Part shown: positions 405 through 14,793 of the stretch, one piece after another
Numbering within the stretch: the stretch's first letter is position 1
How the letters are laid out: each line of letters begins with the position of its first letter
UHGV virus genome: UHGV-0120184
Origin: a virus
Strand: one strand, 5' to 3'
DNA: 14,793 nucleotides
Notes under the pieces: model-generated
Seen by the model: the letters and a program-made list of their open reading frames with translations, nothing else
Told to the model about the DNA's origin: nothing
Database searches by the model: none
Position numbers and translations under genes: made by a program

Positions 405-412
405 ACAGCAAA

Positions 413-434
413 AACGCCCTGACACCAGGGCGTT
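413..434. terminator. Bidirectional rho-independent terminator between the convergent Tfa-like gene and gene U
   Basis: Perfect 9-bp stem AACGCCCTG / CAGGGCGTT with loop ACAC, flanked by an A-run (408-412) and ATTATTT (435-441), so a U-run follows the stem on either strand. It lies between the stop codons at 402-404 (+) and 440-442 (-). Confidence 0.6.
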
Positions 435-439
435 ATTAT

Positions 440-913
440 TTAAACCGGAATGGACAGATTATTCAGGGCACCTTTGACGTTATTCGCAAGATCACCAAGC
501 GACGAGGACTGAAGACGTTCACGCAGATCTTCATCCACACGCTCAAAAGTGACAGTAAACTCAATCTTTCTTGCCCGACCATAGCGATCAAGTTCAGAGC
601 GGGTGGTGTTAAGCCCGGTAATGACATACATCCCGTAAATCTGCCCTACCCCATCAATCAGCGGCCATGGTCGCCCGACGTAAGCCTGGCTGGTCAGTGC
701 GGTCAGGGAGACTTCACCGCCCGTAATTTCCGGGTAGAGCAAACCCGAAAGCGTGATGGTATCGTCACCCGCGCCGATATACTGCCAGCTGGCTGAGCGG
801 TTGATTCGCTCGTTCTTTACATGCCTCCAGTTACGGGACTGTTGTATTTGTTGGTATGGCAGTGTGCTTAACTGAAAAACAAACATGCCGTAAATCATCA
901 TCATAACCATCAC
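440..913 (-). CDS. U: P2 gpU-like tail protein
   Basis: 157-aa ORF (…FVFQLSTLPYQQIQQSRNWRH…DTITLSGLLYPEITGG…) matching the P2 gpU family from memory. It lies immediately downstream of the tape measure stop (916-918). Several in-frame ATGs at the 5' end (MMVMMMIYGM) leave the exact start ambiguous. Confidence 0.85.
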   Translation of the reverse strand: MMVMMMIYGMFVFQLSTLPYQQIQQSRNWRHVKNERINRSASWQYIGAGDDTITLSGLLYPEITGGEVSLTALTSQAYVGRPWPLIDGVGQIYGMYVITGLNTTRSELDRYGRARKIEFTVTFERVDEDLRERLQSSSLGDLANNVKGALNNLSIPV

Positions 914-915
914 TC

Positions 916-3747
916 CTAATCACGATCGCGGAAACTGTTCATACCGCCGGATTGTCTGCGAATTTCTTCCCGTACCGCCTCCCCCACCATTCTGGCAAGG
1001 TCGCGAGGGTTCTGCGTAACCACGTTGTGAAGGTGAACATGAATATCACCACCGTACACAGGCGGCGGTTCAGGAGAGCGCGAAGGCCCCCGGGGTGTCG
1101 GGGACACCGGATCCCACCGCTTAACCTCCACAGGACGGGAAGAATCCGGGGAAACCGCCGGAGACACAGGCGAAAACGCTGGCATAAGCGGAAGCCCGGG
1201 TGCAACAGTCGGTTCATTCCACTGCCCGCGAACAGCCAGCGCACGGGGGAGATTTTTAAACACGATATCGCCAGGACCGATACGCTTGCGGGCTTCCTGA
1301 AGCATACCCGACGTATTACCCTCGATACCTTTGAGCCTGCGAAGAACGCCACTGGTGCCGTCGTTTATGACAGAAGGCTTGCCACCATTATTACCTTTAT
1401 CATTGCCATCAACTGGCTTAGCGGGCGAGATAATGGCATTAACATCCCCCTGAAGCAGGGAGAGCTTGCCCTGAAGAAGCGAAGCCCGCTGTGCATCCTC
1501 CAGTTTCCGGCGCGCCCTTTCAGCTTCATCAGGCAGCACGCCAAGCTTTTCCAGTACCCAGGCAAGTCCATCCATCAGCGCCTTCAGCGGCGTAAGCGCA
1601 AGCGATATCGCCCCACTAAGTACACGACCGAAGCTTTCTCCCGCAGACGTACACCGTTCAAGAGATTCGTTGCTGGCCTGAACAGGCGTGAGTAACCGGG
1701 TAAACCAGTCAAACACCGTGGACACCGCACCCGACACCAGATCAAACAACGGCGCAAACTGAGCAATACTTTCACGAACAGGCGCAAGGCCAGCCCACAG
1801 CGACCGGAATGTGCCGAGCATGAACGCCTTAACCTGTTCCCAGTGACGCCATATGAGCAGCGCCCCACCGGCAAGAGCAGCAATCACGAGACCAACAGGA
1901 CTGAGAAGACCGGAAAGCACCCCGCCCAGCACAGAAACCGCACCGGAGACCATCCCCCACAGTGCCGGAAGGCCGGACAGGCGAAGAGCAAGACCACCAA
2001 CACCGTTTGTAAGCGAGGATAGCCCGCCACCAAGAAGCGCAGAGCCAAGCTGAAGTTTTGCAAAAATCCCCGTCAGTAACCCACCTCCGACAGACAACGC
2101 ACCAATGGCCGTTGTGGCCGCAAGCACGCCACCCACGGTAAGGGTCAGCGTGCGTACAAGCTGCGGGTTTTCCTGAACCCACGACCTGAAGCGTTCACCC
2201 ACAGAAGCAACAGCCTGTACAAGCTCGCGGATATCATCAGTAACCAGCGACACAACATCACTGCGAATACCGGAGAAAATGCCGGACAGACGATCGGTGT
2301 CGCCGCCGAGGTTGTCACGCAGAACATCCCCCATTCGCCGGGCGGTTCCCTGAACCAGCCCCATACGGTCAGATACCGTTGCAAGCGACCGGAGAAAATC
2401 CGGGATCTGGTCAACAGCCAGATCTTCAATGGGTGTGCCGAACAGCGCTATCGCCGCATTGGCCCGTTCTGCAGGATCCTGAATCTGTAACAGACCTGAC
2501 GCGGTGCGACGCATCGCTTCACGCGCGGCCGCGCCGCCACTGGCGATCGCTGACGACATTCTTTCAGCGTTAAGGCCAATCAGCTCATAGGCTTCAACGC
2601 TGGATTTGGACATATCCGAGCCGCGAATACTGAATTCTTTGACAGCATCGCCGGTTTTATCCAGGGCGAATTTCCCCTGCTGCGCCATGCTGACAAGCAG
2701 CGTCATGGTTTCAGAGCCGGATAGCCCCATATTGCGGAAATGCGTGGAATACTCATGCAGAATTTCAGGAAGTTCGCCGCGCATTTCGGCAGACATTTTC
2801 TGCATCCCTGCCGCCATCAGGTCGACGGCCTCACCTGCATTTGCGGCAAGCCCGTTTTTCAGCATAATGCCAGCAGCCTGAACCTGTTCAGCCACATTAC
2901 CGCCGGTGACCTGAGCAAGATCGATTGCCTGCCGTGTCACCCTTTCCAGTTCTTCAGTCCCTACGGTACCCAGTGCGCCAAGCGTGCTTTGCGCCGCAGC
3001 TGCTGCTTCCGAAATCATCGCGATATCCGTGGCCGCACCTGACGCACGGATGCTCTGAATCATACGGCTGTAGCGCTGGCCGTCTTCTGCGCTGCCGCCA
3101 CTCTGTGCCGCAATGAGCGCACCCTGCCGTTGCTCTTCAACAACAGGTGCAACCGCGCGACCGGCAGCATACAGACCGGCACTGCCAGCCGCCATGGCAA
3201 CAGCACCGCGCTGACTGAGCTTACCGGCAATATCCTGAACACGGTCATAGCGTTGCTGCGCCTGCGTGACGCGTGCAAGCTGGCCCCGCTGGCGTTCGAG
3301 CTGATCGTTGTATTCCTGCGTCCGCCTGATTGCCCTCTCGACCGCACGGTTACTTCCGTCCGCCCGTATACCGTGAGATTCCAGTTCGCGACTGGCTTCG
3401 CTAAGTCGGGATTTGTGGAGGGAATAAACCGTATTAAGGCGATCAATCTTCACAGTCAGCGAGCGTATAGCTTCCTGCTGTTTTTCCGTTAGTGTTGTGC
3501 CTGTACGCTGGGCCTCCTGGAGGCGCTGAAGTCGCGCACGCGCCTCGTTCAGACTGTTTTCAGTCGAGGTCACCTGCTGGCGGGCACGGGAAAACGCATC
3601 ACTGCTTCGCTGGAGTGACTTAAGAGCGTTCTGCGTGGAGGAAAGAGATTCGGAAAGCGCGCCGGTCATTTCCCGGGCGCGCCTGACGGGTTGAGTGAGA
3701 CGGTCGACCGCAGTAAGGGCTACACGTATCTGGAGATTATTACTCAT
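916..3747 (-). CDS. T: Phage tail tape measure protein (P2 gpT-like)
   Basis: Long ORF with an N-terminal coiled-coil-like region (repeated Q/R/E/L heptad-like stretches), a Gly/Ala/Leu-rich hydrophobic middle segment and a Pro-rich C-terminus, all typical of tape measure proteins. ATG at 3747-3745 (MSNNLQIRV…) is preferred because the E' frame stop (3742-3740) overlaps it; the ORF track's GTG at 3801 is an alternative start. Confidence 0.85.
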   Translation of the reverse strand: MSNNLQIRVALTAVDRLTQPVRRAREMTGALSESLSSTQNALKSLQRSSDAFSRARQQVTSTENSLNEARARLQRLQEAQRTGTTLTEKQQEAIRSLTVKIDRLNTVYSLHKSRLSEASRELESHGIRADGSNRAVERAIRRTQEYNDQLERQRGQLARVTQAQQRYDRVQDIAGKLSQRGAVAMAAGSAGLYAAGRAVAPVVEEQRQGALIAAQSGGSAEDGQRYSRMIQSIRASGAATDIAMISEAAAAAQSTLGALGTVGTEELERVTRQAIDLAQVTGGNVAEQVQAAGIMLKNGLAANAGEAVDLMAAGMQKMSAEMRGELPEILHEYSTHFRNMGLSGSETMTLLVSMAQQGKFALDKTGDAVKEFSIRGSDMSKSSVEAYELIGLNAERMSSAIASGGAAAREAMRRTASGLLQIQDPAERANAAIALFGTPIEDLAVDQIPDFLRSLATVSDRMGLVQGTARRMGDVLRDNLGGDTDRLSGIFSGIRSDVVSLVTDDIRELVQAVASVGERFRSWVQENPQLVRTLTLTVGGVLAATTAIGALSVGGGLLTGIFAKLQLGSALLGGGLSSLTNGVGGLALRLSGLPALWGMVSGAVSVLGGVLSGLLSPVGLVIAALAGGALLIWRHWEQVKAFMLGTFRSLWAGLAPVRESIAQFAPLFDLVSGAVSTVFDWFTRLLTPVQASNESLERCTSAGESFGRVLSGAISLALTPLKALMDGLAWVLEKLGVLPDEAERARRKLEDAQRASLLQGKLSLLQGDVNAIISPAKPVDGNDKGNNGGKPSVINDGTSGVLRRLKGIEGNTSGMLQEARKRIGPGDIVFKNLPRALAVRGQWNEPTVAPGLPLMPAFSPVSPAVSPDSSRPVEVKRWDPVSPTPRGPSRSPEPPPVYGGDIHVHLHNVVTQNPRDLARMVGEAVREEIRRQSGGMNSFRDRD

Positions 3748-4275
3748 CGTTATGATTCCCGGTTCTGACGGCCGCCCGTTCTCGCCAGGCAACCAGTTCA
3801 CCGGGAGTCATCACAAAGATTTCAGAGGGCGACCAGTGAAATACAACGGCTATATCAGCGACAATATCTTCAACGTAATCAAAAGCAAGAAGCGTTACGC
3901 GCCGCCCGCCTCCTGCGCCTTCTTCGCTGACGAGGGAAGCAAAAAACCGACTGCCACCTCGTACAGTTTAAAGAAGTCTTCCGGGCACATTGACATAAGT
4001 GCCGCGCGGCTGAGGTGAGGTTCAGTTACGCGTTCCAGAAAAATGGCGGCAGCATCAACATCGGTGTTGAACAGGTCCGTCATGCGGATCCCTCGAAGCG
4101 AGCCCACCTGACGCGCAAGCGCCCCAATCTTCACGCTGGAAACCGTCTTATTACCGCAGACAACAGGAACCCTGAGATTAACCGTGTCATTTGCGATCGC
4201 CTCTGCGTTTTCCGTGTCGCCATTCGTCACAGCATCTGTGTCATTCGTCACGATATTTTCTTCAGTCTGATCCAT
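3740..4275 (-). CDS. E': gpE+E' fusion product made by programmed -1 ribosomal frameshift
   Basis: Minus-strand heptamer T TTT TTG (complement of 3946-3940) lies in the E zero frame (GGT TTT TTG). The -1 frame stays open from there for about 65 codons (…VTLLAFDYVEDIVADIAVVFHWSPSEIFVMTPGELVAWRERAAVRTGNHNDE) and ends at TAA 3742-3740, overlapping the tape measure ATG at 3747. This is the same arrangement as P2 E/E' and lambda G/GT. Confidence 0.6.
3895..4275 (-). CDS. E: Tail assembly chaperone gpE-like protein
   Basis: ORF between tail tube and tape measure whose C-terminal part (…GIRMTDLFNTDVDAAAIFLERVTEPHLSRAALMSMCPEDFFKLYEVAVGFLLPSS…) is gpE-like. It carries a T6G slippery site near its 3' end. 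The acidic N-terminal extension makes the true start uncertain. Confidence 0.75.
   Translation of the reverse strand: MDQTEENIVTNDTDAVTNGDTENAEAIANDTVNLRVPVVCGNKTVSSVKIGALARQVGSLRGIRMTDLFNTDVDAAAIFLERVTEPHLSRAALMSMCPEDFFKLYEVAVGFLLPSSAKKAQEAGGA
3940..3946 (-). promoter_or_regulatory. Slippery heptamer TTTTTTG for the -1 frameshift (E to E')
   Basis: X XXY YYZ motif in the zero frame of E, 15 codons before the E stop, with the -1 frame open downstream. Confidence 0.6.
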
Positions 4276-4326
4276 TATTTTTCTCCCGGGGCAACAGGAC
4301 GCCGCCCCTGTTATCAGATTTAACTA

Positions 4327-4839
4327 TCAGCCAAGCCCCAGCATGGAGCGGGTGCGGTCAGGAAGAACATCCTTACCATCAATGCGCCAGATGAAGTTCA
4401 GCACGTCGATTTCAATAACATCGCTGTTATCAACGCTGAGCTTGTACCAGGTGCATTTCATCGCATAGGTATGTTCGGTATCTTCACCCTGTTTGGCCTC
4501 GCCCTTGTCGATTTCGACAATGCGACCACGGGCTTCAATATCGACGTACTCAATCCCTTCTTCGGAATAGTATTCACCCGAGAAGCGAACACGCACGGCA
4601 TCAATACCGGCGGCGTATTTGGCAAAGATGTGACGATCGACGCCACCAACCGCAAAGGAGAGATCCAGTGCACCATCATCAAGACCGAGATCCACCGACG
4701 CAGAGCCTGGCATCCCCGCCCCGCGATACGACTCTGTTTTACGGGTCAGTTTTGGCGGGGTAAAAGACGCCACCTTGCCCAGCTTGTTGTCACCGTCCAC
4801 AAAGACGGTAAACACACGAAGTTTTTTTGGTACGGCCAT
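4327..4839 (-). CDS. FII: Tail tube protein (P2 gpFII-like)
   Basis: 170 aa with strong resemblance to P2 FII (…LGKVASFTPPKLTRKTESYRGAGMPGSASVDLGLDDGALDLSFAVGG…). GGAGG-type Shine-Dalgarno upstream. Start overlaps the sheath stop (TAATG at 4837-4841). Confidence 0.9.
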   Translation of the reverse strand: MAVPKKLRVFTVFVDGDNKLGKVASFTPPKLTRKTESYRGAGMPGSASVDLGLDDGALDLSFAVGGVDRHIFAKYAAGIDAVRVRFSGEYYSEEGIEYVDIEARGRIVEIDKGEAKQGEDTEHTYAMKCTWYKLSVDNSDVIEIDVLNFIWRIDGKDVLPDRTRSMLGLG

Positions 4840-6044
4840 TAGCTACCTCCAAGAGATGCAAAAGCAGAGCCAAAGAACTCGTCGGTAAACGTCTGATAGA
4901 GTTCCATACACTCCATCGGCGGAACAGGCGTGTATTTGTAGCGAATACGCACAATGCCCTGACGAAGACTGGTTGTGCCGTTGTCGATGATATCGAACCA
5001 GCACTCAGCCCCGATGAGTTTTCCGGCTGTCACCAGTGCATCCAGCTTTGCCTTGATAGCGCTCACGGCATCCTTAGCATTGGCAGGCGTAAGCGGTGAA
5101 TCCACTATCTGAAGTTGCGCCTCCGCAATGGTGTCAGCCAGTTGCTGCGCCGTACGTGTGTACACCTCAAAGATGTACTCCGCAGTTTCCGGCGTACGGT
5201 TACCCCAGAAACGGAAGGAGCCGTCGCCCTGGTGAATAAGAGTGGTCACCTCGCTATTGTTCAGCGTGTTGGCATCGCTGTTTTCATCCTGAAGTGACCA
5301 GGAAACAGACGCTGACACCCCAAGAACATTTTTCACAGGCATGTTAGAAAGGGAGCGATGCCAGCCCTGTTCATGGTCGAGTCGGGCACGAAGACCGCAC
5401 GCATACGCCGCAGCCGGGAAGGTTTCGTTTTTACCGGACACCGGGTTGAACGCAATGAAATCAGGCCACAGAAGCATGATTTCGCGACCGGAAATCTTTT
5501 TACGGAACGCAATAGCATCGGACGGTTTTGTGCAGCCAGGGCAGCCGGAATACGCAAATGCGCGCATTTTTCCGGCAACAGTCACCAGTGCAGCCGTGAC
5601 AGCATCCGATTCAAGGCCCGGAGCGGCAAGAATGCGGGGTCGGTAACCAATACCTTCCATCTGTTCGGCAACCAGAAGCGCCTGCATACCGCTGTAGCTT
5701 CCGTCTTCTTCCGTGGTACCAATGACCAGTTGATCCTGTGTTTTATTCTCAGCCCCCTCTTTTGCCGCCTCCACGCGAACGACAATCACCCGTGTACTGA
5801 CCTGGTCAGATATCGCTTTAAGGGCCTTATAAAGCGTGCCCGCTTTCCCGGCCTTCCCCAGAACAGAAGATACACGGGTAATCAGCACAGGCTTGTTAAG
5901 GGGGAACTGCCCGGTATCCGCATCATCTGCAACGGCAACAATACCAATGACGCTGGAATCAACGTCATTAATGGCCGTCACAAGGTCGGTATTCTCCGTG
6001 ACGCGCACACCGTGAAATCGTTTTTCAGCCATACGATTCACCAT
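4839..6044 (-). CDS. FI: Contractile tail sheath protein (P2 gpFI-like)
   Basis: 401 aa with motifs matching P2 FI from memory (HGVRV…FPLNKPVLIT…GTLYKALKAISDQ…WPDFIAFNPVSG…FRFWGNRT…YKYTPVPPMEC). The start could instead be the in-frame ATG at 6032. Confidence 0.9.
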   Translation of the reverse strand: MVNRMAEKRFHGVRVTENTDLVTAINDVDSSVIGIVAVADDADTGQFPLNKPVLITRVSSVLGKAGKAGTLYKALKAISDQVSTRVIVVRVEAAKEGAENKTQDQLVIGTTEEDGSYSGMQALLVAEQMEGIGYRPRILAAPGLESDAVTAALVTVAGKMRAFAYSGCPGCTKPSDAIAFRKKISGREIMLLWPDFIAFNPVSGKNETFPAAAYACGLRARLDHEQGWHRSLSNMPVKNVLGVSASVSWSLQDENSDANTLNNSEVTTLIHQGDGSFRFWGNRTPETAEYIFEVYTRTAQQLADTIAEAQLQIVDSPLTPANAKDAVSAIKAKLDALVTAGKLIGAECWFDIIDNGTTSLRQGIVRIRYKYTPVPPMECMELYQTFTDEFFGSAFASLGGS

Positions 6045-6107
6045 CAGTTGTGTTTATGCTCGCCTGAATAATCCACCATTGGCGCACAGCCCTCACCTGA
6101 TGCGGGC

Positions 6108-6125
6108 TGTGGGGATTTTTTTACA
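6108..6125. promoter_or_regulatory. TGT-N12-ACA dyad, candidate Ogr-dependent late-promoter activator site in the divergent FI/D region
   Basis: Exact TGT(6108-6110)-N12-ACA(6123-6125) in the 141-bp region between the FI start (6044, minus) and the D start (6186, plus). The dyad centre is about 55 bp from plausible transcription starts on either side, matching the known architecture of P2/P4 late promoters. Confidence 0.4.
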
Positions 6126-6185
6126 ACAGAGCCGGACAGAAACGACAAGGTACGCGTGGGATGATACGCACACGGGAGGGATATC

Positions 6186-7331
6186 ATGAGCATCACTGAA
6201 TCAGTAACACATCACATCAACAGCGCACTGGATGCAGCGGAAGATACCGTTAGGGTGCCAGACTTCACTATCACACTGGAAGGGAAAGATGCCAGCCTGA
6301 AGAACATCACGCAGCGCATCATGAGCCTGACCATGACAGACAACAGGGGTTTTGAGGCTGACAGGGTGACACTGGAAATCGACGACGCCGACGGCGGGGT
6401 GGTACTTCCGGAGCGCGGAACACGATTATCGCTGGCGATGGGATGGAAAGGTGAAAGCCTCACTCGCAAGGGGGCGTTTGTGGTGGACGAAGTGAGCCAC
6501 GAAGGTCCGCCGGATAAGCTGACCATATCCGCGAACAGTGCGGATTTTCGCGAAGAGTTTAACGTGAAACGCGAAGTCTCCTGGCATGACGTGACCGTTG
6601 AGCGTGTGGTATCTGCCATCGCGCACCGTTACGGACTGAAAGCACAAATCAGCGAAATGCTGATGAATATCGAAATCGACCATGCAGACCAGACAGAGGA
6701 AAGCGACATCTCGTTCCTCACGCGTATGGCTGACATGCTGGGTGCAATAACCACCGTAAAAAACGGGTGCCTGCTGTTCATTCTGCCGGGTGGCGGTGTG
6801 ACAGCCAGCGGGCGCGCCCTCCCCTCATTCGCCCTGACCCGCTCGGATGGCGACAGTCATCGCTTTCGCATTGCTGACAGAAAAGCCTATACCGGAGTGA
6901 AAGCTTACTGGCTGGATTTAAAGTTCGGCCAGAAGAAGGCCGTGAACGTGAAAAAGCGAAACGCGAAAACCACACAGAAGCCGGAGAAAAGCAGTTCACG
7001 GGAGGGTGGATACATGGAAGGCGCAGAAGGCAATGTGTATGTGCTGAGAAAAACCTACCCGAACGAAGAAGCCGCGCGTCGCGCAGCTGCCGCACGCTGG
7101 CAGCAACTTCAGCGGGGTGCAGCAGAATTCAGCATCACGCTGGCGCGCGGACGCGCCGACCTGTATCCGGAGATGCACGGCACGGTATCCGGGTTCAAGA
7201 GCGACATTGACAATCAGGACTGGATTATTTCGCGCATTGAGCACGTCATCGACGACAGCGGCTTCACCACCAGACTGGAGCTGGAAGCAAAAATCGCAGA
7301 CTGGATAGCAGAGCGCGCCACGACTGGCTAG
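6186..7331 (+). CDS. D: Phage tail protein D (P2 gpD-like late control / tail formation protein)
   Basis: 381 aa with gpD-family hallmarks (PDFTITLEGKDASLKNITQRIMSLTMTDNRGFEADRVTLEIDDADGGVVLPERG…FLTRMAD…ISRIEHVIDDSGFTTRLELE). GGGAGG Shine-Dalgarno 5 nt upstream of the ATG. Confidence 0.9.
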   Translation: MSITESVTHHINSALDAAEDTVRVPDFTITLEGKDASLKNITQRIMSLTMTDNRGFEADRVTLEIDDADGGVVLPERGTRLSLAMGWKGESLTRKGAFVVDEVSHEGPPDKLTISANSADFREEFNVKREVSWHDVTVERVVSAIAHRYGLKAQISEMLMNIEIDHADQTEESDISFLTRMADMLGAITTVKNGCLLFILPGGGVTASGRALPSFALTRSDGDSHRFRIADRKAYTGVKAYWLDLKFGQKKAVNVKKRNAKTTQKPEKSSSREGGYMEGAEGNVYVLRKTYPNEEAARRAAAARWQQLQRGAAEFSITLARGRADLYPEMHGTVSGFKSDIDNQDWIISRIEHVIDDSGFTTRLELEAKIADWIAERATTG

Positions 7332-7372
7332 AATGAGCGCGAGCCCACCCCGTTTCAGCCAGGGGGACCATC

Positions 7373-7675
7373 ATGCATCCTTGCCCATACTGCGGAGCAA
7401 GTACCCGCACCAGAACAAGCCGCGACGCCAACGATACAGGAACAATCAGGGAGAAATATTACCAGTGCAACAACATTGAATGCAGCGCCACCTTTGTGAC
7501 GCACGAGTTTGTCGTGAGAACCGTATGCCGTCCGCAACCCACCGAAGAACGGGGAGTCGTCCCCGCAGACGCTTTCAAATCATGCCACCGGGGAAGGGAT
7601 CAACTCAGCCTCCCCCTGGGCGATTGCGCCTCCCAGTCAAAAACTGTACATTACGCGCGGGTGCCTTTCGGCTGA
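7373..7675 (+). CDS. ogr: Ogr/Delta-family zinc-finger late transcription activator
   Basis: N-terminus MHPCPYCG…TSR…REKYYQCNNIECSATFVTHE has the C-x2-C…C-x4-C zinc-finger layout and close resemblance to P2 Ogr. It lies immediately downstream of D, as in P2. The C-terminal tail is longer than P2 Ogr (100 vs about 72 aa). Confidence 0.8.
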   Translation: MHPCPYCGASTRTRTSRDANDTGTIREKYYQCNNIECSATFVTHEFVVRTVCRPQPTEERGVVPADAFKSCHRGRDQLSLPLGDCASQSKTVHYARVPFG

Positions 7676-7805
7676 CGGCTGGAAGGATTACCTGAAGGCC
7701 GGATGTGGAAAGGCCCCGGAAAACATCTCTGTTTAGCCGAGGCCCTAATCTACATATCTTTAGCAAGTAGAAGGTTAGCGCCTCTTTGAAAAAGGAGCAA
7801 GCGCT

Positions 7806-7946
7806 ATGCCGCAAAAAACGATCATCGTGAGCATTTTATGCTTAACCATGTTGTTGACCGTCTGGATGATACATCGTTCACCATGTGAATTCAGACTTAA
7901 CATCATGTGGTCAGAATTTGCGGCGTTCTTGCAGTGTAAACCGTAA
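7806..7946 (+). CDS. hok: Hok/Gef/PndA-family type I toxin (small membrane peptide)
   Basis: 46-codon ORF not in the supplied track: MPQKTIIVSILCLTMLLTVWMIHRSPCEFRLNIMWSEFAAFLQCKP. It has one transmembrane helix followed by the conserved Hok-family C-E-x-R and E-x-AAF motifs and is very close to PndA as I recall it. AGGAG Shine-Dalgarno at 7793-7797, 8 nt before the ATG. Confidence 0.75.
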   Translation: MPQKTIIVSILCLTMLLTVWMIHRSPCEFRLNIMWSEFAAFLQCKP

Positions 7947-7954
7947 GAAACCGC

Positions 7955-7976
7955 AGCGGGGGTGAAAGCCCCCGCT
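7955..7976 (+). other. Stable 8-bp GC-rich hairpin in the hok 3' region
   Basis: AGCGGGGG-TGAAAG-CCCCCGCT, 9 nt after the hok stop. hok-family mRNAs carry extensive 3' structure (the fold-back inhibition element); the specific role here is inferred. Confidence 0.4.
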
Positions 7977-8040
7977 ATCCGGTTGCCGAAGGTTCGGTCG
8001 AAAGCCGCACCCGTGCATGCAAGTGACAAAGAAAAAACAA

Positions 8041-8075
8041 AGCCCGCAGCGTAAAAACTGCGGGCTTTTTTATTC
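8041..8075 (+). terminator. Rho-independent terminator closing the hok locus
   Basis: Stem AGCCCGCAG / CTGCGGGCT with an 8-nt loop, followed by TTTTTTATT; preceded by an A-run, so it could also work on the minus strand. Confidence 0.6.
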
Positions 8076-8112
8076 ACATACCGAAGGTGTGGTAACTGCC
8101 TGGGTTCAGACC

Positions 8113-8136
8113 AAAAAAAGCCCCATAAAATGGGGC
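8113..8136 (-). terminator. Candidate minus-strand rho-independent terminator
   Basis: Plus strand reads A7-GCCCCA-TAAAA-TGGGGC; on the minus strand this is a GC stem followed by a T7 run. It lies about 300 nt downstream of the minus-strand membrane-protein operon. Confidence 0.4.
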
Positions 8137-8281
8137 TGAAGATTCTGTAAGGAATTTCACAGCAATGAGATTCTAGTCTCTTCCAATGATATATGAGTCT
8201 TCAGCCTGAATCAATGGGGCATGACTGTGAATCCACCGACGATCAAAACTTGCACAATGCCTGAAGTTGAGTTAGAAAAGT

Positions 8282-8342
8282 ACCGGGCGCGATATCCGGT
8301 TTATTTTTTGTTGCTGTGTTTTGCCTCGTGCCGGATATCGCG
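8282..8342. repeat. 12-bp perfect inverted repeat CGCGATATCCGG separated by a 31-nt T-rich spacer, with a nested terminator-like hairpin
   Basis: CGCGATATCCGG at 8288-8299 and its reverse complement CCGGATATCGCG at 8331-8342. The nested hairpin ACCGG-N9-CCGGT (8282-8300) is followed by TTATTTTTTG. Confidence 0.5.
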
Positions 8343-8432
8343 TCCACCGTTTTTCTGATGATTCTTATGAAATCGTACTTTATTGATTTACTGCCATCCT
8401 GGTTTGTCTTTTTATGTTCATTATTGCGACAG

Positions 8433-8828
8433 TCATTTCCTGTTTCTGGTGATGTTTTGATAAAAGTGAAAGAATAAAACGATCATTGCAGAAGGTATTG
8501 CTAAAACCATACATATCATTATATAAACAAGATGAAAATGATATATACCATAAGACCAGAAAAAAGGTTTTTTCCAGAATGATATGGATGTGTATTTTAG
8601 TGTAATTGTTTTTGTCAGGTATATTGAACAAGGAAGAGCCAGGCCACTGAGTATCAGAAATAAGTCAACTTTTATCGATGCTTCTGTTGGTGTGTCATAT
8701 ATAAGATGCAATATGGATATTATAATGGGGCACATTCCCCACAGGATATTTTTGAAATAGAATTTCCGGTTCATATGTTTATGCTCTTTGGTTTTATCCC
8801 GGGAATTGGCGCTTTGTTTTTTATTCAT
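8433..8828 (-). CDS. Hypothetical small membrane protein (3-4 TM helices); second gene of the operon, translationally coupled
   Basis: 131-aa ORF whose ATG (8828-8826) lies 5 nt upstream of the upstream gene's stop (8823-8821), giving an 8-nt overlap. Hydrophobic segments ILWGMCPIIISILHLIY, VDLFLILSGLALPCSIYL and YGIYHFHLVYIMICMVLAIPSAMIVLFFHF. Same AT-rich composition. Confidence 0.55.
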   Translation of the reverse strand: MNKKQSANSRDKTKEHKHMNRKFYFKNILWGMCPIIISILHLIYDTPTEASIKVDLFLILSGLALPCSIYLTKTITLKYTSISFWKKPFFWSYGIYHFHLVYIMICMVLAIPSAMIVLFFHFYQNITRNRK

Positions 8829-9492
8829 GAACGTTTTCGTTGTTTAATAACCATGGGGTATTATGATTATCCTTTATTTTTGATATGTAATTGTCAATAG
8901 TGGATTTCGTTTCATTATTGTGGTTATAGTAATCATGAAGAGTGCAAAACACATCATCTTTTATTGTGGCGATTAATGGGGCTTGTGTGAGGGTAAAATA
9001 TAAAGAACGATTACTTAGTGTCCTGAAATAAATTTTTTCGCCAATGACCAGATCGGTGTTCATTATATTGTAGCCTATTTCAAATATATTGTTTGATGGC
9101 ATGTGTAATACATATGTGGGGTATTTGTTGTGTTTTTTCATTAAATAATAAATAAAATCAGATACAGGCATCTGTTTTAGTTTTTTTTGCATCTTCCTTA
9201 TGTGTTGTGACATTAATATCATTTTCGAGAGAATGCATAAGAGACTAAACAAGAGATTAAATACTATGTTCAGTACTATCAGAGTAACAAACAGGCCAAT
9301 GCTCCTTAGCGCTGAAAATATATTGTCATTGTAAATATACTGGAATGTATATCCGGCTGATAAAAATGCCAATATATATAACACTATGTCTGTTTTATTT
9401 CGCTTTTTTATTTTGTAGGTTATTGCTGATTTTAAGAATAAGATGGCAATAAGAGCAGTGATAACCCAGAAAAATATAACGGAAACTTCCAT
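8821..9492 (-). CDS. Hypothetical multi-pass membrane protein (about 3 N-terminal TM helices plus a ~130-aa hydrophilic C-terminal domain); first gene of an AT-rich two-gene operon
   Basis: 223-aa ORF in a region of very low GC compared with the flanks. Hydrophobic stretches VSVIFFWVITALIAILFL, IVLYILAFLSAGYTF and IGLFVTLIVLNIVFNLLFSLLCIL. AAAGG Shine-Dalgarno-like motif upstream of the ATG at 9492. I recognise no family. Confidence 0.6.
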   Translation of the reverse strand: MEVSVIFFWVITALIAILFLKSAITYKIKKRNKTDIVLYILAFLSAGYTFQYIYNDNIFSALRSIGLFVTLIVLNIVFNLLFSLLCILSKMILMSQHIRKMQKKLKQMPVSDFIYYLMKKHNKYPTYVLHMPSNNIFEIGYNIMNTDLVIGEKIYFRTLSNRSLYFTLTQAPLIATIKDDVFCTLHDYYNHNNETKSTIDNYISKIKDNHNTPWLLNNENVHE

Positions 9493-9690
9493 AATTATAC
9501 CTTTATCGTGTTTTCAGGGAGGTAATTTATCATTGTGCTGATATGCATGTAAATACATGCATTATCTGTTTCTTATATTCTTTTTATGAAGTTACTGATT
9601 AATTTATATTAAAACAACACATTCATAATGAAATCAACATGTTCATATGGTTGACGGCAGATTTCTCTTTTTGTTAACCTGCATCTGCAT

Positions 9691-9939
9691 TAACTGTCGC
9701 TTCGGCGACCACCAATGTTCCATAGTGGCCTGTGAGGAACGCCTTCGGGTGGCCCATGTCGCTCCGGCGACCACCAATGCTCCATATGACCTGTGAGGAG
9801 CGCCTTCGGGTGGTCAGTTTTACACCTCCGTAGCCTGAAAGGAGCTGTGAGTACTGAAGGGAAACATCCCTGATGTATGGGCAAATCTGCACACCTTTGA
9901 GAGCAGATGTCACTACGGTTTTACGTGATGATGAAGGCA
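9691..9939 (+). repeat. Direct repeat copy A (~249 bp) bounding the recombinase module; begins with two tandem ~61-nt units
   Basis: Near-identical to 12484-12733 with only a handful of mismatches. Internal tandem units at about 9695-9756 and 9757-9817, each starting with the hairpin GTCGC-T(T/C)CG-GCGAC. Confidence 0.85.
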
Positions 9940-10682
9940 TTCCGGATTCCGTTCCGGTACTTTTATTTTTTCTCAGCAGACAGGCATAAAAACGCCTTTA
10001 AAATCTGCGTCTTAAGATATTTTCTGACTTTCCGCATGAGCTTCTTATGACTGTGCGCACGGCATAAGACCATTTGAAATTTGGTCGCTTGCGTGTGCAT
10101 GTGGAGTTTGAAGCTGTGCGGCGTCACTTGCGTGCGACCGAAGGGAACACCAAGTGACGCCGCGGCCATCTGCCCTGAAGGCAGCATCACGTAAGGTCTG
10201 GCAGAAAATCGTCGCTCGTGACAAGCGTCCTGATGCTCGTTTTGTCGCTCTGACAACGTCTTTCGGTGACGTATCCACGCCTTTCCGGCGCGTCCGTTTT
10301 CACACGGACGGCCACGCCGGAATGTCTTCTTAAACTTCGTAATACATGAGAGGTAAGTGTATTAACTGACTGAAATAAAGGAATAAAAATGAAAAATCGT
10401 TCTGATGTCGGGAGGCGTCATCGTAAGGTGACGGGGAGTATTCCTCAACAATCGCCCTGGTGCACAGGTAGCGAACTCCTGTAAGAACTCAACATGTGCA
10501 AGCTCTGCTACATCGACATCAAACGAGCCAGGAAGGCGAACAACCGCGTTACAGAGCCGTCCGTGATGACGAAAAACTAACAATATCAACGAACTTTTCT
10601 GTTTACCGGAAGGGCTGCGTATGCAGTTTTACTTTGTGAACGGAAGGGGGCTGCATCTGATTTTTACAGGGAGAATGACTTT

Positions 10683-11600
10683 ATGGCCCGGAAATCGTCA
10701 CGTTCTAAAGTTGAACTGTTTCGCAAGTCTTTCATCTCACTTGCCCGTGAGTGTGGTGGCAGTTACGCAACAACAGCTGACAGAATGAGAATTGCAAAGT
10801 ACTTCCTGAATTATTTACGTGAAAATGGAATTAAACTTCGCCAGACGAGCAGTATTAAAACCAGACATATTTCTGGTTACCTTCTCAGCAGGAAAGCAGC
10901 GGGTATTTCTCACCGGACTATTCAGAATGAACGGGCGGTTATGCGTGCCATTTTAGAAAAAGATGGACGACTTAAAATCGCAGATCCTTCTAACCCATTA
11001 TTGAGTAATGAAGCGCTCGGCCTAAAGGATACATGCCGTGATGGAAAGAAAATAGCATTGTCACCGGATGAATTCTGGAAAGCATTTGCTAAAGTGGAAA
11101 AAAAGAATCCTGGTGTGGCAGCTGCAATGCAGCTTTCTTATGTTCTGGGTTTAAGAACAAAAGAAGCCGTTCAGTCATGTAAGTCTGTTCAGTCATGGCT
11201 ACGGGAACTGAATTCAGGGTGCGATTCTCTTTCGGTCGTTTTTGGTACGAAAGGTGGAAGACCAAGAAATACCACAATTATTGACAGAGATGCGGTAAGA
11301 CATGCTTTGCTTTATGCTCAAAAAATAATGGATGAACACGACGGAAAACTTATTGACCGTCCAAATATAAAACAGGCTATCAATGTTTTTCGTTATCATG
11401 CCCGTAAAGCGGGATTGTCAGGAGTGAAATCTCCGCACAGTATGCGTTATCATTTTTCTCAGGAAGCCAGAAAATTTTATCGAAAAAATGGATATGGAGA
11501 GTCGGAAATCTACGCTCGTGTTTCTATGGATCTTGGCCATGGTGACGGAAGAGGTCGTTATGTAAAACAGGTTTATTTTAACGGTTCTGATGAAAGTTGA
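10683..11600 (+). CDS. Short tyrosine-recombinase-like protein (integrase family)
   Basis: 305 aa. Catalytic-domain-like order and spacing of residues: R in LGLRTKEA, K in TKGGRPR, H-x-x-R in HSMRYH, H in LGHGDG and a C-terminal Y in RYVKQVY. N-terminal region resembles a core-binding (SAM-like) domain. Assignment is by motif reading only. Confidence 0.7.
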   Translation: MARKSSRSKVELFRKSFISLARECGGSYATTADRMRIAKYFLNYLRENGIKLRQTSSIKTRHISGYLLSRKAAGISHRTIQNERAVMRAILEKDGRLKIADPSNPLLSNEALGLKDTCRDGKKIALSPDEFWKAFAKVEKKNPGVAAAMQLSYVLGLRTKEAVQSCKSVQSWLRELNSGCDSLSVVFGTKGGRPRNTTIIDRDAVRHALLYAQKIMDEHDGKLIDRPNIKQAINVFRYHARKAGLSGVKSPHSMRYHFSQEARKFYRKNGYGESEIYARVSMDLGHGDGRGRYVKQVYFNGSDES

Positions 11601-11603
11601 TAT

Positions 11604-12341
11604 TTAAAATGAATCTGGAGGATATGTGTTTTTGTTAATTTCGGTTATGATGATTTCTGATGCGCGATTACACATATCTTCATCAAAATACCCAATATGA
11701 CATTCATGAATGTGACAATTCAGTTTTCTGGATAGCCATATATTTGCCTCGTTACGGGATATGTTGGCTCTTTGCTGATAATTGTCAAAAAGTTTACGTA
11801 CTTTTGTTCTGAGTATTCTCAGGTTTTCTTTAGCCGGAGTACCTAATGGTCTTCCTGAGTTTTTATGGCATCCAACCCATGCATTGCATGGGGGACAAAT
11901 CCAGTAATATTTGTTTTCTGTCGCGGCTGAAATGGAAAATGGCATGAGAGCCCCTTTTATAAGATTCGTCTTATTTCCACAGTATGGGCAGATAACAATT
12001 GGTCGGACATCTGCAATATTCAGTGATGTATAAGTCAGTCGTTCATTTTTAACGATGTTTCTCTTTCCGCAATGGGTGAGAACATGCTTTATTGTATCTA
12101 ATTCTTCTCGTAGTATTTTGGAACTGACGCCAGTGCGATAACGTTGTTGAAAATAGCATTCAATATGACGTAGTTTTATGCTATTTGCTGAGCTTATCTG
12201 TATATTGGCATCTTTAAGAAATGAAGCAAGTCTTCTGGCTCTTCCCGTATATACCAACATATCTTCTGGCGTCGGGGCGCATGCTTTGGCTATTCTGAGT
12301 AGTTCATCTTTTAATTTTTTGTATTTCGATTTCATTTTCAC
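11604..12341 (-). CDS. Integrase-N-terminal-like domain fused to a Cys-rich zinc-ribbon-like domain; no recombinase catalytic motifs
   Basis: 245 aa. The N-terminal ~100 aa are paralogous in layout to the neighbouring recombinase N-terminus (…SSANSIKLRHIECYFQQRYRTGVSSKILREELDTIKHVL vs …TSSIKTRHISGYLLSRKAAGISHRTIQNERAVMRAIL). The C-terminus has CPYCG…CPPC…CH…CHIHECHIG…C Cys/His clusters. It is convergent with the recombinase gene, with stops 3 bp apart. Start is GTG 12341 or ATG 12335. Confidence 0.65.
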   Translation of the reverse strand: MKMKSKYKKLKDELLRIAKACAPTPEDMLVYTGRARRLASFLKDANIQISSANSIKLRHIECYFQQRYRTGVSSKILREELDTIKHVLTHCGKRNIVKNERLTYTSLNIADVRPIVICPYCGNKTNLIKGALMPFSISAATENKYYWICPPCNAWVGCHKNSGRPLGTPAKENLRILRTKVRKLFDNYQQRANISRNEANIWLSRKLNCHIHECHIGYFDEDMCNRASEIIITEINKNTYPPDSF

Positions 12342-12483
12342 ATCTCTCTTACAGGTTCATAAAGAGTGTTACTGAATTAAAAAATATCAAATTGAGCTGG
12401 CCTTGTCAGTCAGCTGTAGGTTATTACCATAGCCACGACAACAACTTGAAGTTTTATGTTGTTTATGATTATATTTTAGACGC

Positions 12484-12733
12484 TAACTTGTCGCTCCGGC
12501 GACCACCAATGTTCCATAGTGGCCTGTGAGGAACGCCTTCGGGTGGCCCATGTCGCTCCGGCGACCACCAATGCTCCATATGACCTGTGAGGAGCGCCTT
12601 CGGGTGGTCAGTTTTACACCTCCGTAGCCTGAAAGGAGCTGTGAGTACTGAAGGGAAACATCCCTGATGTACGGGCAAATCTGCACACCTTTGAGAGCAG
12701 ATGTCACCACGGTTTTACGTGATGATGAAGGCA
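12484..12733 (+). repeat. Direct repeat copy B (~250 bp)
   Basis: Second copy of the sequence at 9691-9939 in the same orientation. Differences: one extra T near the start, T to C in the first hairpin loop, and two single-base changes near 12668 and 12707. Sequences diverge completely after ..GATGAAGGCA. Confidence 0.85.
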
Positions 12734-12866
12734 CTTTGTATACAATGTGACTATGAGTTGTCTCTGGTCTTCTTAAGCGCATCGTGCTGACGCATTGATG
12801 TGTTCACCTGACGGATTTTCCAGTCCGTCAGGGCGGAACGTCCGTCTTTTTCATTCGGAGGTTCCG

Positions 12867-13268
12867 ATGTTTATACCACTTTTGTTACGTGCAGATATGC
12901 GCATAACGCCTTTCTTTCATCTTCTCAGACAATGTCTGTTTAATCAGAAGCGTTGTGTTCACCCACAACAGCCCTGGTCCGCTCCACAACTGAGGCATCT
13001 GTACTGCACTCCGTGGTTTATTAACGCCACCGGCAATCTGTCAGTCAGAGCCTGCATTGTTTCCACCAACGGTGCATTGCGACACTGCTTTGAGTTCCGT
13101 GAAGGCTCTCACAGCCGTGAATATCGTTACTGGTTTGAGGCACTTCCGCTGTCTGTCGTGCGGTTTAATGTCTTTACCGGTCGAATATCTGCTCGCCGCA
13201 CGCTTTCTGCTGCCTCCCGTATGGCCGTGCAGCTTACTTCTTTTCGCTATCGCTTCGGTCTTCGCTGA
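12867..13268 (+). CDS. Hypothetical basic Cys/Arg/Phe-rich protein (uncertain gene)
   Basis: ATG at 12867 preceded by GGAGG (12857-12861) at 5-nt spacing; 133 codons. The composition is unusual and no family is recognised, so it may be non-coding. Confidence 0.3.
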   Translation: MFIPLLLRADMRITPFFHLLRQCLFNQKRCVHPQQPWSAPQLRHLYCTPWFINATGNLSVRACIVSTNGALRHCFEFREGSHSREYRYWFEALPLSVVRFNVFTGRISARRTLSAASRMAVQLTSFRYRFGLR

Positions 13269-13380
13269 AGCCTGTTGAACGGTCGTCATGACCGTTGAAA
13301 GGTTTATCACACAACGCCCGGATCTGTCTGACCGTACCACGCGTGCGCGATGACAAATCTGAGTTTTCCTTAACCCGTCC

Positions 13381-13417
13381 GGGACCGCTCCCGTTCGGGG
13401 ACGGTCCCGCTGTTTTT
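13381..13417 (+). terminator. GC-rich hairpin plus T-run immediately upstream of the next gene's RBS (terminator or attenuator-like)
   Basis: GGGACCG (13381-13387) pairs with CGGTCCC (13402-13408), with internal TCCC/GGGA pairing, followed by TTTTT (13413-13417) and then AGGAG (13421-13425) and ATG 13433. Confidence 0.45.
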
Positions 13418-13432
13418 ATCAGGAGATTGTTT

Positions 13433-13813
13433 ATGGGACTCGATATTTTTTTCCTTGGGCGTGATCGTGTTACCGACGCGGTAGTATCGGTACCGGAAAC
13501 GCGGGAAGTGGGTTACTTTCGCAAGGTTAACCCACTGATTGCCTGGTTTGAGACGCATTGTGGACCGGTTGAAAATGCCGTGGAGCGTCCGGTTTCCAGA
13601 ACGGAACTGGAGGCACTACTGAGCGATCTTGAATGCCTTACGCCGGAGAACTGCCGGGAATTCTTCCCCACAACAGAAGGATTCTTTTTTGGTTCTCAGG
13701 AGTATGACCAGTATTACTGGAAGGATGTTGAGATCGTGAAATCGTGGGTCAGAAGCACGCTTGATTCGTTTGATTTTGAACGAAAAATACTGTTGCTCTG
13801 GGCATGGTGGTAA
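13433..13813 (+). CDS. Hypothetical protein
   Basis: Start at ATG 13433 chosen (AGGAG 8 nt upstream) over the track's 13295, which would read through the hairpin and T-run. 126 aa ending …SWVRSTLDSFDFERKILLLWAWW. No family recognised. Confidence 0.55.
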   Translation: MGLDIFFLGRDRVTDAVVSVPETREVGYFRKVNPLIAWFETHCGPVENAVERPVSRTELEALLSDLECLTPENCREFFPTTEGFFFGSQEYDQYYWKDVEIVKSWVRSTLDSFDFERKILLLWAWW

Positions 13814-13913
13814 TTATTTTTCTGTCCTTGTTTTTAACCTTATTACCCTGTCGGGAACATGTGTCCCGTAGGGCAGGTGTGTTCCCGTAATTTTTTGTAT
13901 CTGAGGTGAACAC

Positions 13914-14393
13914 ATGAATAGTCTGTTAATACTCCTTTACGTTGTTGTATGCCGTGCCTGCACCATTCTTCGGGTAATCGCACCAGTGTCGTCTGTCCGT
14001 GCGTGGTGTGAGTATCAACTGGAAGGTATGACGATACTTCGTGATGCGTACAGCTCGCTGGCTAAGGCGGCTGGAATGCAGAATGATGCATTTGAATATC
14101 TTGAAAGTATTGCTCGTCATCTGGGCTACGAAAGCGGTGGTGACCAACTGAAATCAGGACTTTTCCGGCCGTTTCTGTGGCATATACGTGCGAAAGGCCA
14201 CAGGCTGGGAGCTGTCATGGAAATGGCGGTATGGCAGGCATGGAAGAATGGCTGTAACGATGTCTGCAATCCATGGGAGGATGTCTACAATCCATGGGAC
14301 CGTGGATGGAACGATGGCTGGACTGAATGTCTGGATCAACGTATAGCCGGTCTCCTGAAGGCGGTCTGTATTGACTTTTCCGACGCCGACTGA
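13914..14393 (+). CDS. Hypothetical protein with hydrophobic N-terminus and Trp/Asn/Asp-rich repeats (NPWED…NPWDRGWNDGW)
   Basis: 159-aa ORF with GAGGTG Shine-Dalgarno-like motif 6 nt upstream of the ATG. No family recognised. Confidence 0.5.
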   Translation: MNSLLILLYVVVCRACTILRVIAPVSSVRAWCEYQLEGMTILRDAYSSLAKAAGMQNDAFEYLESIARHLGYESGGDQLKSGLFRPFLWHIRAKGHRLGAVMEMAVWQAWKNGCNDVCNPWEDVYNPWDRGWNDGWTECLDQRIAGLLKAVCIDFSDAD

Positions 14394-14427
14394 ACGGTTT
14401 TTCTTTTACTTACTGTACCGTGTACCT

Positions 14428-14508
14428 GCGTCGGTGGCGTGGGTCAGCGATACGCTGAAGACGTTTGATTTTGAGCGTCATTCACTGGTGATGCTGGCGT
14501 TGTGGTAA
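14428..14508 (+). pseudogene. Orphan 3' fragment paralogous to the C-terminus of the 13433-13813 gene
   Basis: The translation ASVAWVSDTLKTFDFERHSLVMLALW* aligns with KSWVRSTLDSFDFERKILLLWAWW* at the end of the 13433-13813 protein. There is no start codon or Shine-Dalgarno, and it begins right after the stop of the 13914-14393 gene. Confidence 0.4.
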
Positions 14509-14600
14509 GTCCGGCCAGTCTGATTTTCGTTATTAATTTAACCGTATGGTGCATGTTCACCGTACGGGGAGCATGCATCTTTTTTATGGAGCGTGCTCTT

Positions 14601-14753
14601 ATGAAAACGAAAAAACATACTTCATGTCCCGTGAACAAAACCCCGGAGCGTGACCTGTATCAGCTGGTGACGGACAGGGTGATTGAGGCCATCGAAAAGG
14701 GCGTAGCCCCCTGGCAACGTCCATGGCGCTCAGTACGGTGTCAGCGCCAGTGA
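14601..14753 (+). pseudogene. ArdC-N-like (DUF1738-type) antirestriction protein N-terminal fragment, prematurely terminated
   Basis: MKTKKHTSCPVNKTPERDLYQLVTDRVIEAIEKGVAPWQRPW matches the conserved DLYQ-VTD-II-LE-G-PW-PW N-terminal motif of ArdC-like proteins as I recall it. The ORF stops after 50 codons and all three forward frames have stops within 14751-14770. Confidence 0.4.
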
Positions 14754-14793
14754 TATAAGACGGTAATTCACCATTTGGATTGTCCGCTCCACC

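Follow-up and report, generated by a model that had tools for sequence, protein, structure and literature searches.

The genes examined here lie towards the end of the window (the whole stretch of DNA that was analysed; 14,793 nt of UHGV virus genome UHGV-0120184), in a part (7639–14738) that is 99.6% identical to a section of a complete conjugative element from strain SCU-106 (locus L001) with conjugation genes of the TIGR0375x type. Left of 7639 the element gives way to the late genes of a P2-like prophage, the two being joined through a hok segment common to both. Two STAXI motifs and one EFASI motif were recovered (75.5, 78.2, and 72.3 bits), and between these motifs are an Integrase_1/Phage_int_SAM_2 gene and a DUF3268/Phage_int_SAM_2 gene. 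STAXI and EFASI are known to occur together with genes for antirestriction proteins, SSB, and integrases, and a function as ssDNA has been proposed for STAXI (Weinberg et al. 2010, PMC2864571). The second STAXI copy is followed by an array of small genes that begins with g0 (no match in Pfam; a homologue heads the array of another element, L004) and continues with g1, g2, a fragment of a third gene (g3), and the start of ardC, all on the + strand (Table 1), an orientation that continues in L001. The original prediction had named g1 and g2 as two small genes just upstream of an ArdC-N-like gene in an anti-restriction setting of an integrative element; both open reading frames (126 and 159 aa) are where it put them, the cluster is directly followed by the ArdC gene, and the setting is supported by ArdC, the STAXI and EFASI motifs, the integrase genes, and the co-oriented array.

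Table 1. Features identified in the window, with position (nt), strand, and the basis of each assignment
Feature	Position	Strand	Basis
STAXI motif, first copy	9695–9868		Rfam, above gathering score
EFASI motif	10397–10525		Rfam, above gathering score
STAXI motif, second copy, immediately ahead of the array	12489–12662	+	Rfam, above gathering score
Structured element upstream of g0 (S1, overlapping S2, T-run)	12804–12852	+	Covariance model E = 0.0023; fold z = −3.5
g0, 133-aa very basic hypothetical protein (pI 11.3)	12867–13268	+	Annotated CDS in L001
Structured element upstream of g1	13372–13417	+	Covariance model E = 9e-4; fold z = −2.5; terminator-like hairpin and T-run
g1, intact 126-aa acidic protein, MGLD/phrog_7971 family	13433–13813	+	Full-length phrog_7971 match, E = 1.3e-24
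Structured element upstream of g2	13846–13896	+	Sequence and fold, z = −2.8
g2, intact 159-aa hypothetical protein	13914–14393	+	ORF; 120 listed homologues
Conserved segment after g2 in all arrangements, left flank of the deletion	14393–14436	+	Identical in L002
Deletion junction; 421 bp of L002 (4239–4659) absent	14436–14437		Alignment to L002
g3 remnant (probable pseudogene fragment), last 23 codons and stop of a 127-aa MGLD-family paralogue	14437–14508	+	71 of 72 nt identical to the intact g3 3′ end in L002
Structured element upstream of ardC, two overlapping helices with covariation	14539–14585	+	Covariance model E = 8.5e-11; fold z = −4.2
ardC, first 46 codons (ArdC-N domain), truncated	14601–14738	+	Pfam ArdcN, E = 7.5e-8
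End of an IS3-family insertion sequence, interrupting ardC	14739–14793		59-nt query, 14735–14793

The ArdC-N match (PF08401) covers the first 50 residues and profile positions 2–29 only. The start of ardC is 99.6% identical in DNA to the L001 gene, where the ArdC-family protein is full length (327 aa), and the homology to L001 ends at 14738; the C-terminal metallopeptidase (MPTase-PolyVal) domain of ArdC is absent from the window and present in orthologues. Sequence annotated as IS3-family transposase genes in more than 2,000 genomes of E. coli is 100% identical to the terminal 59-nt query over the full length of the query. With ardC cut after codon 46 by this IS3-family end, the anti-restriction island is decaying in this window.

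The two intact genes differ in how widely their relatives are spread. The g2 protein starts with a hydrophobic helix, and its C-terminal region is rich in W and contains a 21-nt tandem repeat (14259–14299), the copy number of which varies among homologues. The 120 listed g2 homologues were all ≥82% identical, 152–168 aa in length, and exclusively from E. coli and Salmonella, including serovar Typhi; no family match was found among Pfam, NCBIfam, PADLOC, and PHROG profiles, and g2 appears from these comparisons to be a narrow enterobacterial orphan. For g1 the only family match was to phrog_7971, and neither gene matched Pfam, NCBIfam, or PADLOC, so that neither is a member of a housekeeping family or of any other characterised family in these libraries. 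Structure prediction, suggested for both proteins, succeeded for g1 (AF2, pLDDT 90.9, pTM 0.85) and not for g2, the model of which (pLDDT 56.6) was too poor for a fold search.

Directly after g2 the C-terminal end of g1 recurs. A repeat search of the window identified an ungapped direct repeat of 71 nt (13743–13813 vs 14438–14508, 70% identity), with TGGTAA closing both copies in the same reading frame and 12 of 23 residues identical at the protein level (SWVRSTLDSFDFERKILLLWAWW vs AWVSDTLKTFDFERHSLVMLALW). The recurrence had been placed from 14428 onward; the homologous portion starts at 14437, on a codon boundary, and the 9 nt ahead of it are part of the conserved segment after g2. The fragment begins 43 nt past the g2 stop without a ribosome-binding site and, relative to intact g3, without the start site and 104 codons, and it does not contain the complete domain of ~120–130 aa, with its N-terminal strands, that characterizes phrog_7971/MGLD members. 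In the AF2 model of g1 (strands at residues 4–11, 23–30, 52–54, and 118–125; helix at 93–112), the tail corresponds to the end of the helix and the terminal strand; as it spans only the helix end and the last strand of a four-stranded sheet, the fragment would not fold alone. It is a remnant and no functional member of the MGLD family, presumably a dead pseudogene fragment.

The intact paralogue was recovered by matching window positions 13200–14738 to E. coli chromosomes. Thirteen complete genomes matched this query in one piece (99.5–99.7% identity) with the same junction, and five matched in two pieces with extra DNA between them, keeping g3 beside g1 and g2. One of these five, NZ_CP027323 (locus L002), has three annotated genes ahead of an ArdC-family gene: g1 (127 codons including the stop), g2 (159 aa), and g3 (127 aa; MGLDIYFLARDNHQ...DIKAWVSDTLKTFDFERRSLVMLALW), the last 47% identical to g1. 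The fragment is thus the tail of a g1 paralogue, as predicted, with g3 itself as the source: the retained 72 nt differ at one position from the L002 g3 end, compared to only 70% identity with g1. Window and L002 are 98% identical on either side of a gap of exactly 421 bp, made up of 109 nt of intergenic sequence plus codons 1–104 of g3. At the junction there were 0 bp of microhomology relative to L002, and slipped-strand or microhomology-mediated deletion was rejected; the similar 9-mers GCGTCGGTG and GCGTGGGTC did not mediate the deletion, as both are still present.

The region is very probably the start of a co-oriented array of an integrative conjugative element in which a 421-bp deletion cut g3 down to its last 23 codons. 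The order in the E. coli element is g0, g1, g2, g3, ardC, and onward, and a single deletion in the lineage of the window would have taken the upstream element, the ribosome-binding site, and the first 104 codons of g3, with g2 an unrelated and intact neighbour that is not the cause of the truncation. With g1 still in place, and with E. coli g3 already divergent at the most conserved motif of the family, the loss of g3 may have been tolerated.

The original prediction proposed that g2 had arrived by insertion or replacement, displacing the 5′ part of a g1 paralogue and leaving the tail behind, a reading to which the position of the fragment directly after g2 and the mosaic gene content of the array between elements lend themselves. 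It is very unlikely, as g2 with identical flanks adjoins intact g3 in five genomes: L002 has the same g2 and the same 43-nt downstream segment beside intact g3, and its sole difference from the window is the clean 421-bp gap starting 43 nt past the g2 stop. Further, the arrays of L004 and L005 (g0′, g2, a 125-aa gene, a 209-aa gene, g3, and ardC) keep both the g2 homologue and g3 intact with two other genes between them. In L004 the segment after g2 (14393–14436) keeps 93% identity across 55 nt. Likewise rejected was a fusion of g2 to the tail by frameshift, with 13 of 14 aligned g2 homologues ending in SDAD; the L004 copy of g2 also ends in SDAD despite a different downstream sequence, and the frame that carries the tail has a stop at 14344–14346.

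Just as improbable is the view that the tail is a modular C-terminal unit swapped between proteins, the second explanation offered by the prediction, or that a real small protein is encoded by the 45-codon ORF at 14371–14508 in the window's ORF list. The MGLD family conserves the FDF...W tail as a motif and PGAP calls the ORF (in L001, a hypothetical protein of 45 aa, RefSeq WP_157906053.1), but the tail was absent from all 120 listed g2 homologues (the longest, 168 aa, has an unrelated frameshifted end) and forms the terminal β-strand of a single compact domain in the g1 model. The ORF starts at a TTG within g2 without a Shine-Dalgarno sequence. Codons 1–22 come from in-frame reading of the intergenic segment, and the ORF exists in the deletion allele only. 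WP_157906053.1 is best regarded as a spurious gene call over the pseudogene remnant, which is thus currently mis-annotated in RefSeq as a 45-aa protein.

The deletion allele is the commoner one among close relatives (13 genomes vs 5), as would be expected if the fragment were ancestral and the three-gene form had arisen when a copy of g1 was inserted ahead of a pre-existing short ORF. This order of events is less probable still, given that an intact family member sits directly beside ardC in at least eight other genera, that the fragment is far closer to the g3 end than to g1, and that the element upstream of g3 has orthologues in Morganella, Erwinia, and Xenorhabdus. Among complete E. coli genomes, at least 37 have intact g3, and in each of the three arrangements inspected (L002, L004, and L005) it is the gene immediately before ardC; on the basis of these three E. 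coli arrangements and of the family members beside ardC elsewhere, the state with intact g3 is ancestral. That the tail similarity reflects chance or low complexity has a negligible probability despite the short (71 nt) and only 70% identical repeat, as the best ungapped score of g1 against the region after g2 was 29, compared to a mean of 9.7 (sd, 1.2; maximum, 16) for 500 dinucleotide-preserving shuffles (z = 15.5), frame and stop codon coincide in both copies, and the intact donor gene is at hand. The tail finding itself is routine: a pseudogene remnant born of a deletion in a decaying mobile-element island.

The family to which g1 and g3 belong is of wider reach. g1 residues 1–126 match positions 1–124 of the 124-position phrog_7971 profile, intact g3 also matches (E = 2.5e-13), and all 23 aligned family members match over their full length. 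The hallmarks of the family are an MGLD(I/M)Y N-terminus, Y(F/W)RK.N, NC, PTT.GFFFGS.EYD.YYW.D, and a C-terminal FDF...AWW strand; g1 (pI 4.56) has all of the invariant and near-invariant columns (MGLD, YFRK.N, NC, PTTEGFFFGS.EYD.YYW.D, and FDF...AWW). E. coli g3 reads TGSRLRGEDY in place of the family's EGFFFGS.EY, and its dN/dS is 0.35–0.89, a pattern that fits relaxed constraint and may reflect tolerance of its loss with g1 present. At E ≤ 1e-3 a profile search of 1.84 billion representative proteins recovered 5,618 clusters, of which 3,899 passed E ≤ 1e-10, such that the family size of ~5,600 refers to representative clusters at 50% identity, and species-representative genomes with matches included Bacillota, Bacteroidota, Actinomycetota, candidate phyla, and archaea. 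Outside conjugative elements, the family's nearest relatives were those of SSU5-like phage-plasmids, and a tblastn search of cultured phages with a distant family member returned only the same seven SSU5-like phage-plasmids; the matches in BFVD were uncharacterised phage proteins, some of them from Pseudomonas phages Phabio and 201phi2-1. The finding points to a very large family without a Pfam model, present in phages, phage-plasmids, and conjugative elements.

Comparisons with characterised proteins were largely negative. Searches of g1, g2, and g3 against Pfam, NCBIfam, and PADLOC gave no useful match, the 23 family members scanned against Pfam at E ≤ 10 yielded scattered noise only, and a profile search of PDB sequences gave no credible relative; nor does any annotated homologue point to a function for g1/g3 or g2. 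No profile match was found between g1, g2, or g3 and known anti-restriction or anti-defence families (ArdA, ArdB/KlcA, Ocr, and others). The nearest solved folds to g1 were YfbM (1ryl), the N-terminal domain of DapD (3r5a, 2rij), and the DNA mimic DMP12 (3w1o), at 8–10% sequence identity, with no Foldseek E-value <0.1 and no sequence-profile link; this resemblance gives no function for g1.

A family member adjoins ardC in Salmonella, Photorhabdus, Morganella, Erwinia, and Xenorhabdus (two species), and also in Tenebrionibacter, Atlantibacter, and Dryocola; the adjacency was found in seven of the nine closest species-representative loci, along with four further loci (L006–L009), and in both gene orders. 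In Salmonella (locus L006) the ArdC-MGLD pair immediately precedes a gene for a TraI_2 relaxase, an adjacency that is only suggestive with regard to leading-region placement. Based on the repeated adjacency in both gene orders, the g1/g3 family may tentatively be seen as an establishment factor acting with or beside ArdC as the element arrives in a new cell in the form of single-stranded DNA, a reading that we hold at somewhat less than even chances. The small acidic protein could bind and block a host protein; another option, suggested by the many invariant polar and aromatic residues of the family, is that it would bind a ligand or be a small enzyme. No ArdC is encoded near the distant members of the family (Bacillota, Bacteroidota, archaea, and phages), and the link to ArdC may therefore be a lineage-specific arrangement and not a functional partnership. 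Overall, the repeated adjacency in Enterobacterales makes the MGLD family a reasonable candidate for a role in conjugative establishment or anti-defence.

Ahead of nearly all array genes, 10–20 nt before the Shine-Dalgarno sequence, is a structured element of ~45 nt with a common layout: a 5′ strand, a first complement (forming helix S1), a second complement (forming helix S2), and a T-run, with S2 pairing to the overlapping part of the 5′ strand of S1. The sequence of the element differs by position within one array and is conserved between orthologous positions across genera, and no Rfam family matched these intergenic elements. Covariation was quantified for the ardC-upstream set only, from nine genera. 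S1 was paired in 89.9% of cells, with compensatory changes at six of 10 pairs and a covariation score of 0.494 (shuffled, 0.213, reached in 0 of 500; slid partners, ≤0.12), and S2 was paired in 88.9% of cells, with compensatory changes at five of eight pairs and a score of 0.503 (shuffled, 0.236, 0 of 500; slid, ≤0.17). The two helices share four columns, and column 12 covaries with its partner in each, so that S1 and S2 are alternative states; an H-type pseudoknot of the two is unlikely by our estimated loop-length limits and by the covariation of column 12 in both. A covariance model built from the ardC-upstream copies only gave 57 matches at E ≤ 1 in 17 loci, 50 of them on the coding strand, including the elements upstream of g0 and g1; the element upstream of g2 was not recovered by this model at E ≤ 1. 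The MAFFT alignment of the MGLD-upstream elements was out of structural register.

Both g1 and g3 have their own upstream structured element and Shine-Dalgarno sequence; the g1/g3 duplication included the upstream element, and the g3 copy was removed by the 421-bp deletion. Array gene content is mosaic between elements, with mosaic boundaries in or near the intergenic elements, and one such boundary, in L002, is marked by a truncated element, TTTTCCCTGAC, only 10 nt from the left end of the deletion. The location of this truncated copy hints that the intergenic elements may also be rearrangement points.

Taken jointly, the element, ribosome-binding site, and ORF could be read as one module, in which the element would be an undescribed RNA or ssDNA switch and module joint and MGLD a factor coupled to ArdC, a combined proposal that we regard as doubtful. 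Under it, the ~45-nt switch would gate the expression of each establishment gene, the same element would serve as a break-and-join point for the gain and loss of modules, and MGLD (g1/g3) would act as a new factor, in establishment or in anti-defence, with a functional coupling to ArdC. Elements of this kind could explain both the regulation of the array genes and their reshuffling between elements; they may act as attenuators, as RNA-stability elements, or as ssDNA structures. Gene family and intergenic elements alike are uncharacterised and merit testing.

Several known systems offer points of comparison. ArdC consists of an ArdC-N ssDNA-binding domain and a metallopeptidase domain (PMC6222260), and g1, g2, and g3 are not ArdC homologues. 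phrog_7971, a PHROG with no function attached, was defined on phage proteins, whereas g1 is here a conjugative-element gene near ardC and the window's third copy, g3, is only a 23-codon remnant. The intergenic elements are like the attenuators of intrinsic terminator/antiterminator systems in having a GC-rich helix, a T-run before the next ribosome-binding site, and a competing upstream helix, though no leader peptide, known ligand, or protein partner was identified for them, and such short GC-rich two-state hairpins do not resemble Frpo-type promoter mimics. The array shares with the leading-region anti-defence islands of plasmids (Samuel et al. 2024, PMC11541004) a known anti-defence gene, here ardC, surrounded by co-oriented small genes mostly of unknown function; related elements here also carry SSB, topoisomerase, methylase, and toxin-antitoxin genes, and candidate single-strand-active STAXI motifs are located upstream, with the difference that the present element is integrative and not a plasmid. 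Lastly, by analogy to the attC-bounded cassettes of integrons, the element-plus-ORF pairs vary in presence as units between related elements; the proteins with integrase domains encoded near the array match Integrase_1, Phage_int_SAM_2, and DUF3268.

A single family of oriented intergenic elements, each roughly 45 nt long, lies 5' of nearly all of the small genes in the co-oriented array, with copies in the window and in L001 (the SCU-106 element with the deletion allele), as well as at many further sites across the loci L004–L019. In each layout, two overlapping and mutually exclusive helices (S1 and S2) are followed by a T-run after S2 and then a Shine-Dalgarno sequence, and compensatory changes among the nine genera compared support both helices. 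A covariance model built from the copies upstream of ardC returned 57 matches at E ≤ 1, of which 50 lie on the coding strand, and no match to the element was found in Rfam.

The array opens with g0, immediately 3' of the second STAXI copy, and the L004 array likewise begins with a g0 homologue. The g0 protein had no match in Pfam and is a possible nucleic-acid-binding partner for the intergenic elements. Both STAXI motifs belong to a 250-nt dispersed repeat (9691–9939 and 12484–12733), and the STAXI/EFASI motifs flank the Integrase_1 and DUF3268/Phage_int_SAM_2 genes.

Features of the array, its flanks and the compared loci (window coordinates unless stated)
Feature	Position	Strand	Remarks
Ogr/Delta zinc finger gene	7373–7675		
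hok/gef gene	7806–7946		
STAXI motifs (two)	9695–9868, 12489–12662	+	above Rfam gathering score
EFASI motif (one)	10397–10525	+	above Rfam gathering score
Integrase_1 gene	10683–11600		
DUF3268/Phage_int_SAM_2 gene	11604–12341	minus	
Intergenic elements	12804–12852, 13372–13417, 13846–13896, 14539–14585		
Intergenic elements, L001	upstream of 17923, 18335, 18880, 19950		
g0	12867–13268		133 aa, very basic, pI 11.3
Tandem repeat in g2	14259–14299		21 nt; encodes units of NPWEDVY/NPWDRGW type
WP_157906053.1	14371–14508; L001 16172–16309		45-aa hypothetical protein (RefSeq/PGAP) over deletion remnant
Intact E. coli g3	L002 4348–4731; L004 and L005 3600–3983		
IS3-family end	14739–14793		matches IS ends in >2,000 E. 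coli genomes at 100% identity

Homologues of g2 (152, 156, 159, 162 and 163 aa) vary in copy number of the 21-nt repeat, which suggests in-frame slippage. For g3, the g1 paralogue reduced to a remnant in the window, WP_157906053.1 should be handled as a pseudogene fragment. In intact E. coli g3, the most conserved family motif, EGFFFGS.EY, is replaced by TGS(R/C)LRGEDY (RNSRLRGEDY in L005) and pairwise dN/dS is 0.35–0.89, together suggesting relaxed constraint or a changed function. A truncated intergenic element (TTTTCCCTGAC; 4239–4249 in L002, NZ_CP027323, compared to 2337–2378 in L004) marks the boundary where two L004 genes are absent from L002; only 10 nt separate this scar from the point where the window's 421-bp deletion begins on its left side, indicating that the spot was rearranged more than once.

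At the right edge of the window, ardC is broken after codon 46 by the IS3-family end. Positions 1–7638 carry late genes of a P2-like prophage (tape measure, tube, sheath, gpD and the Ogr/Delta zinc finger), which meet the conjugative-element segment at the hok/gef gene, with the junction near 7639–7700. The same ogr-hok arrangement also occurs in P2-like prophages of 16 complete genomes, so recombination between prophage and integrative conjugative element may have taken place through the hok segment that they share.
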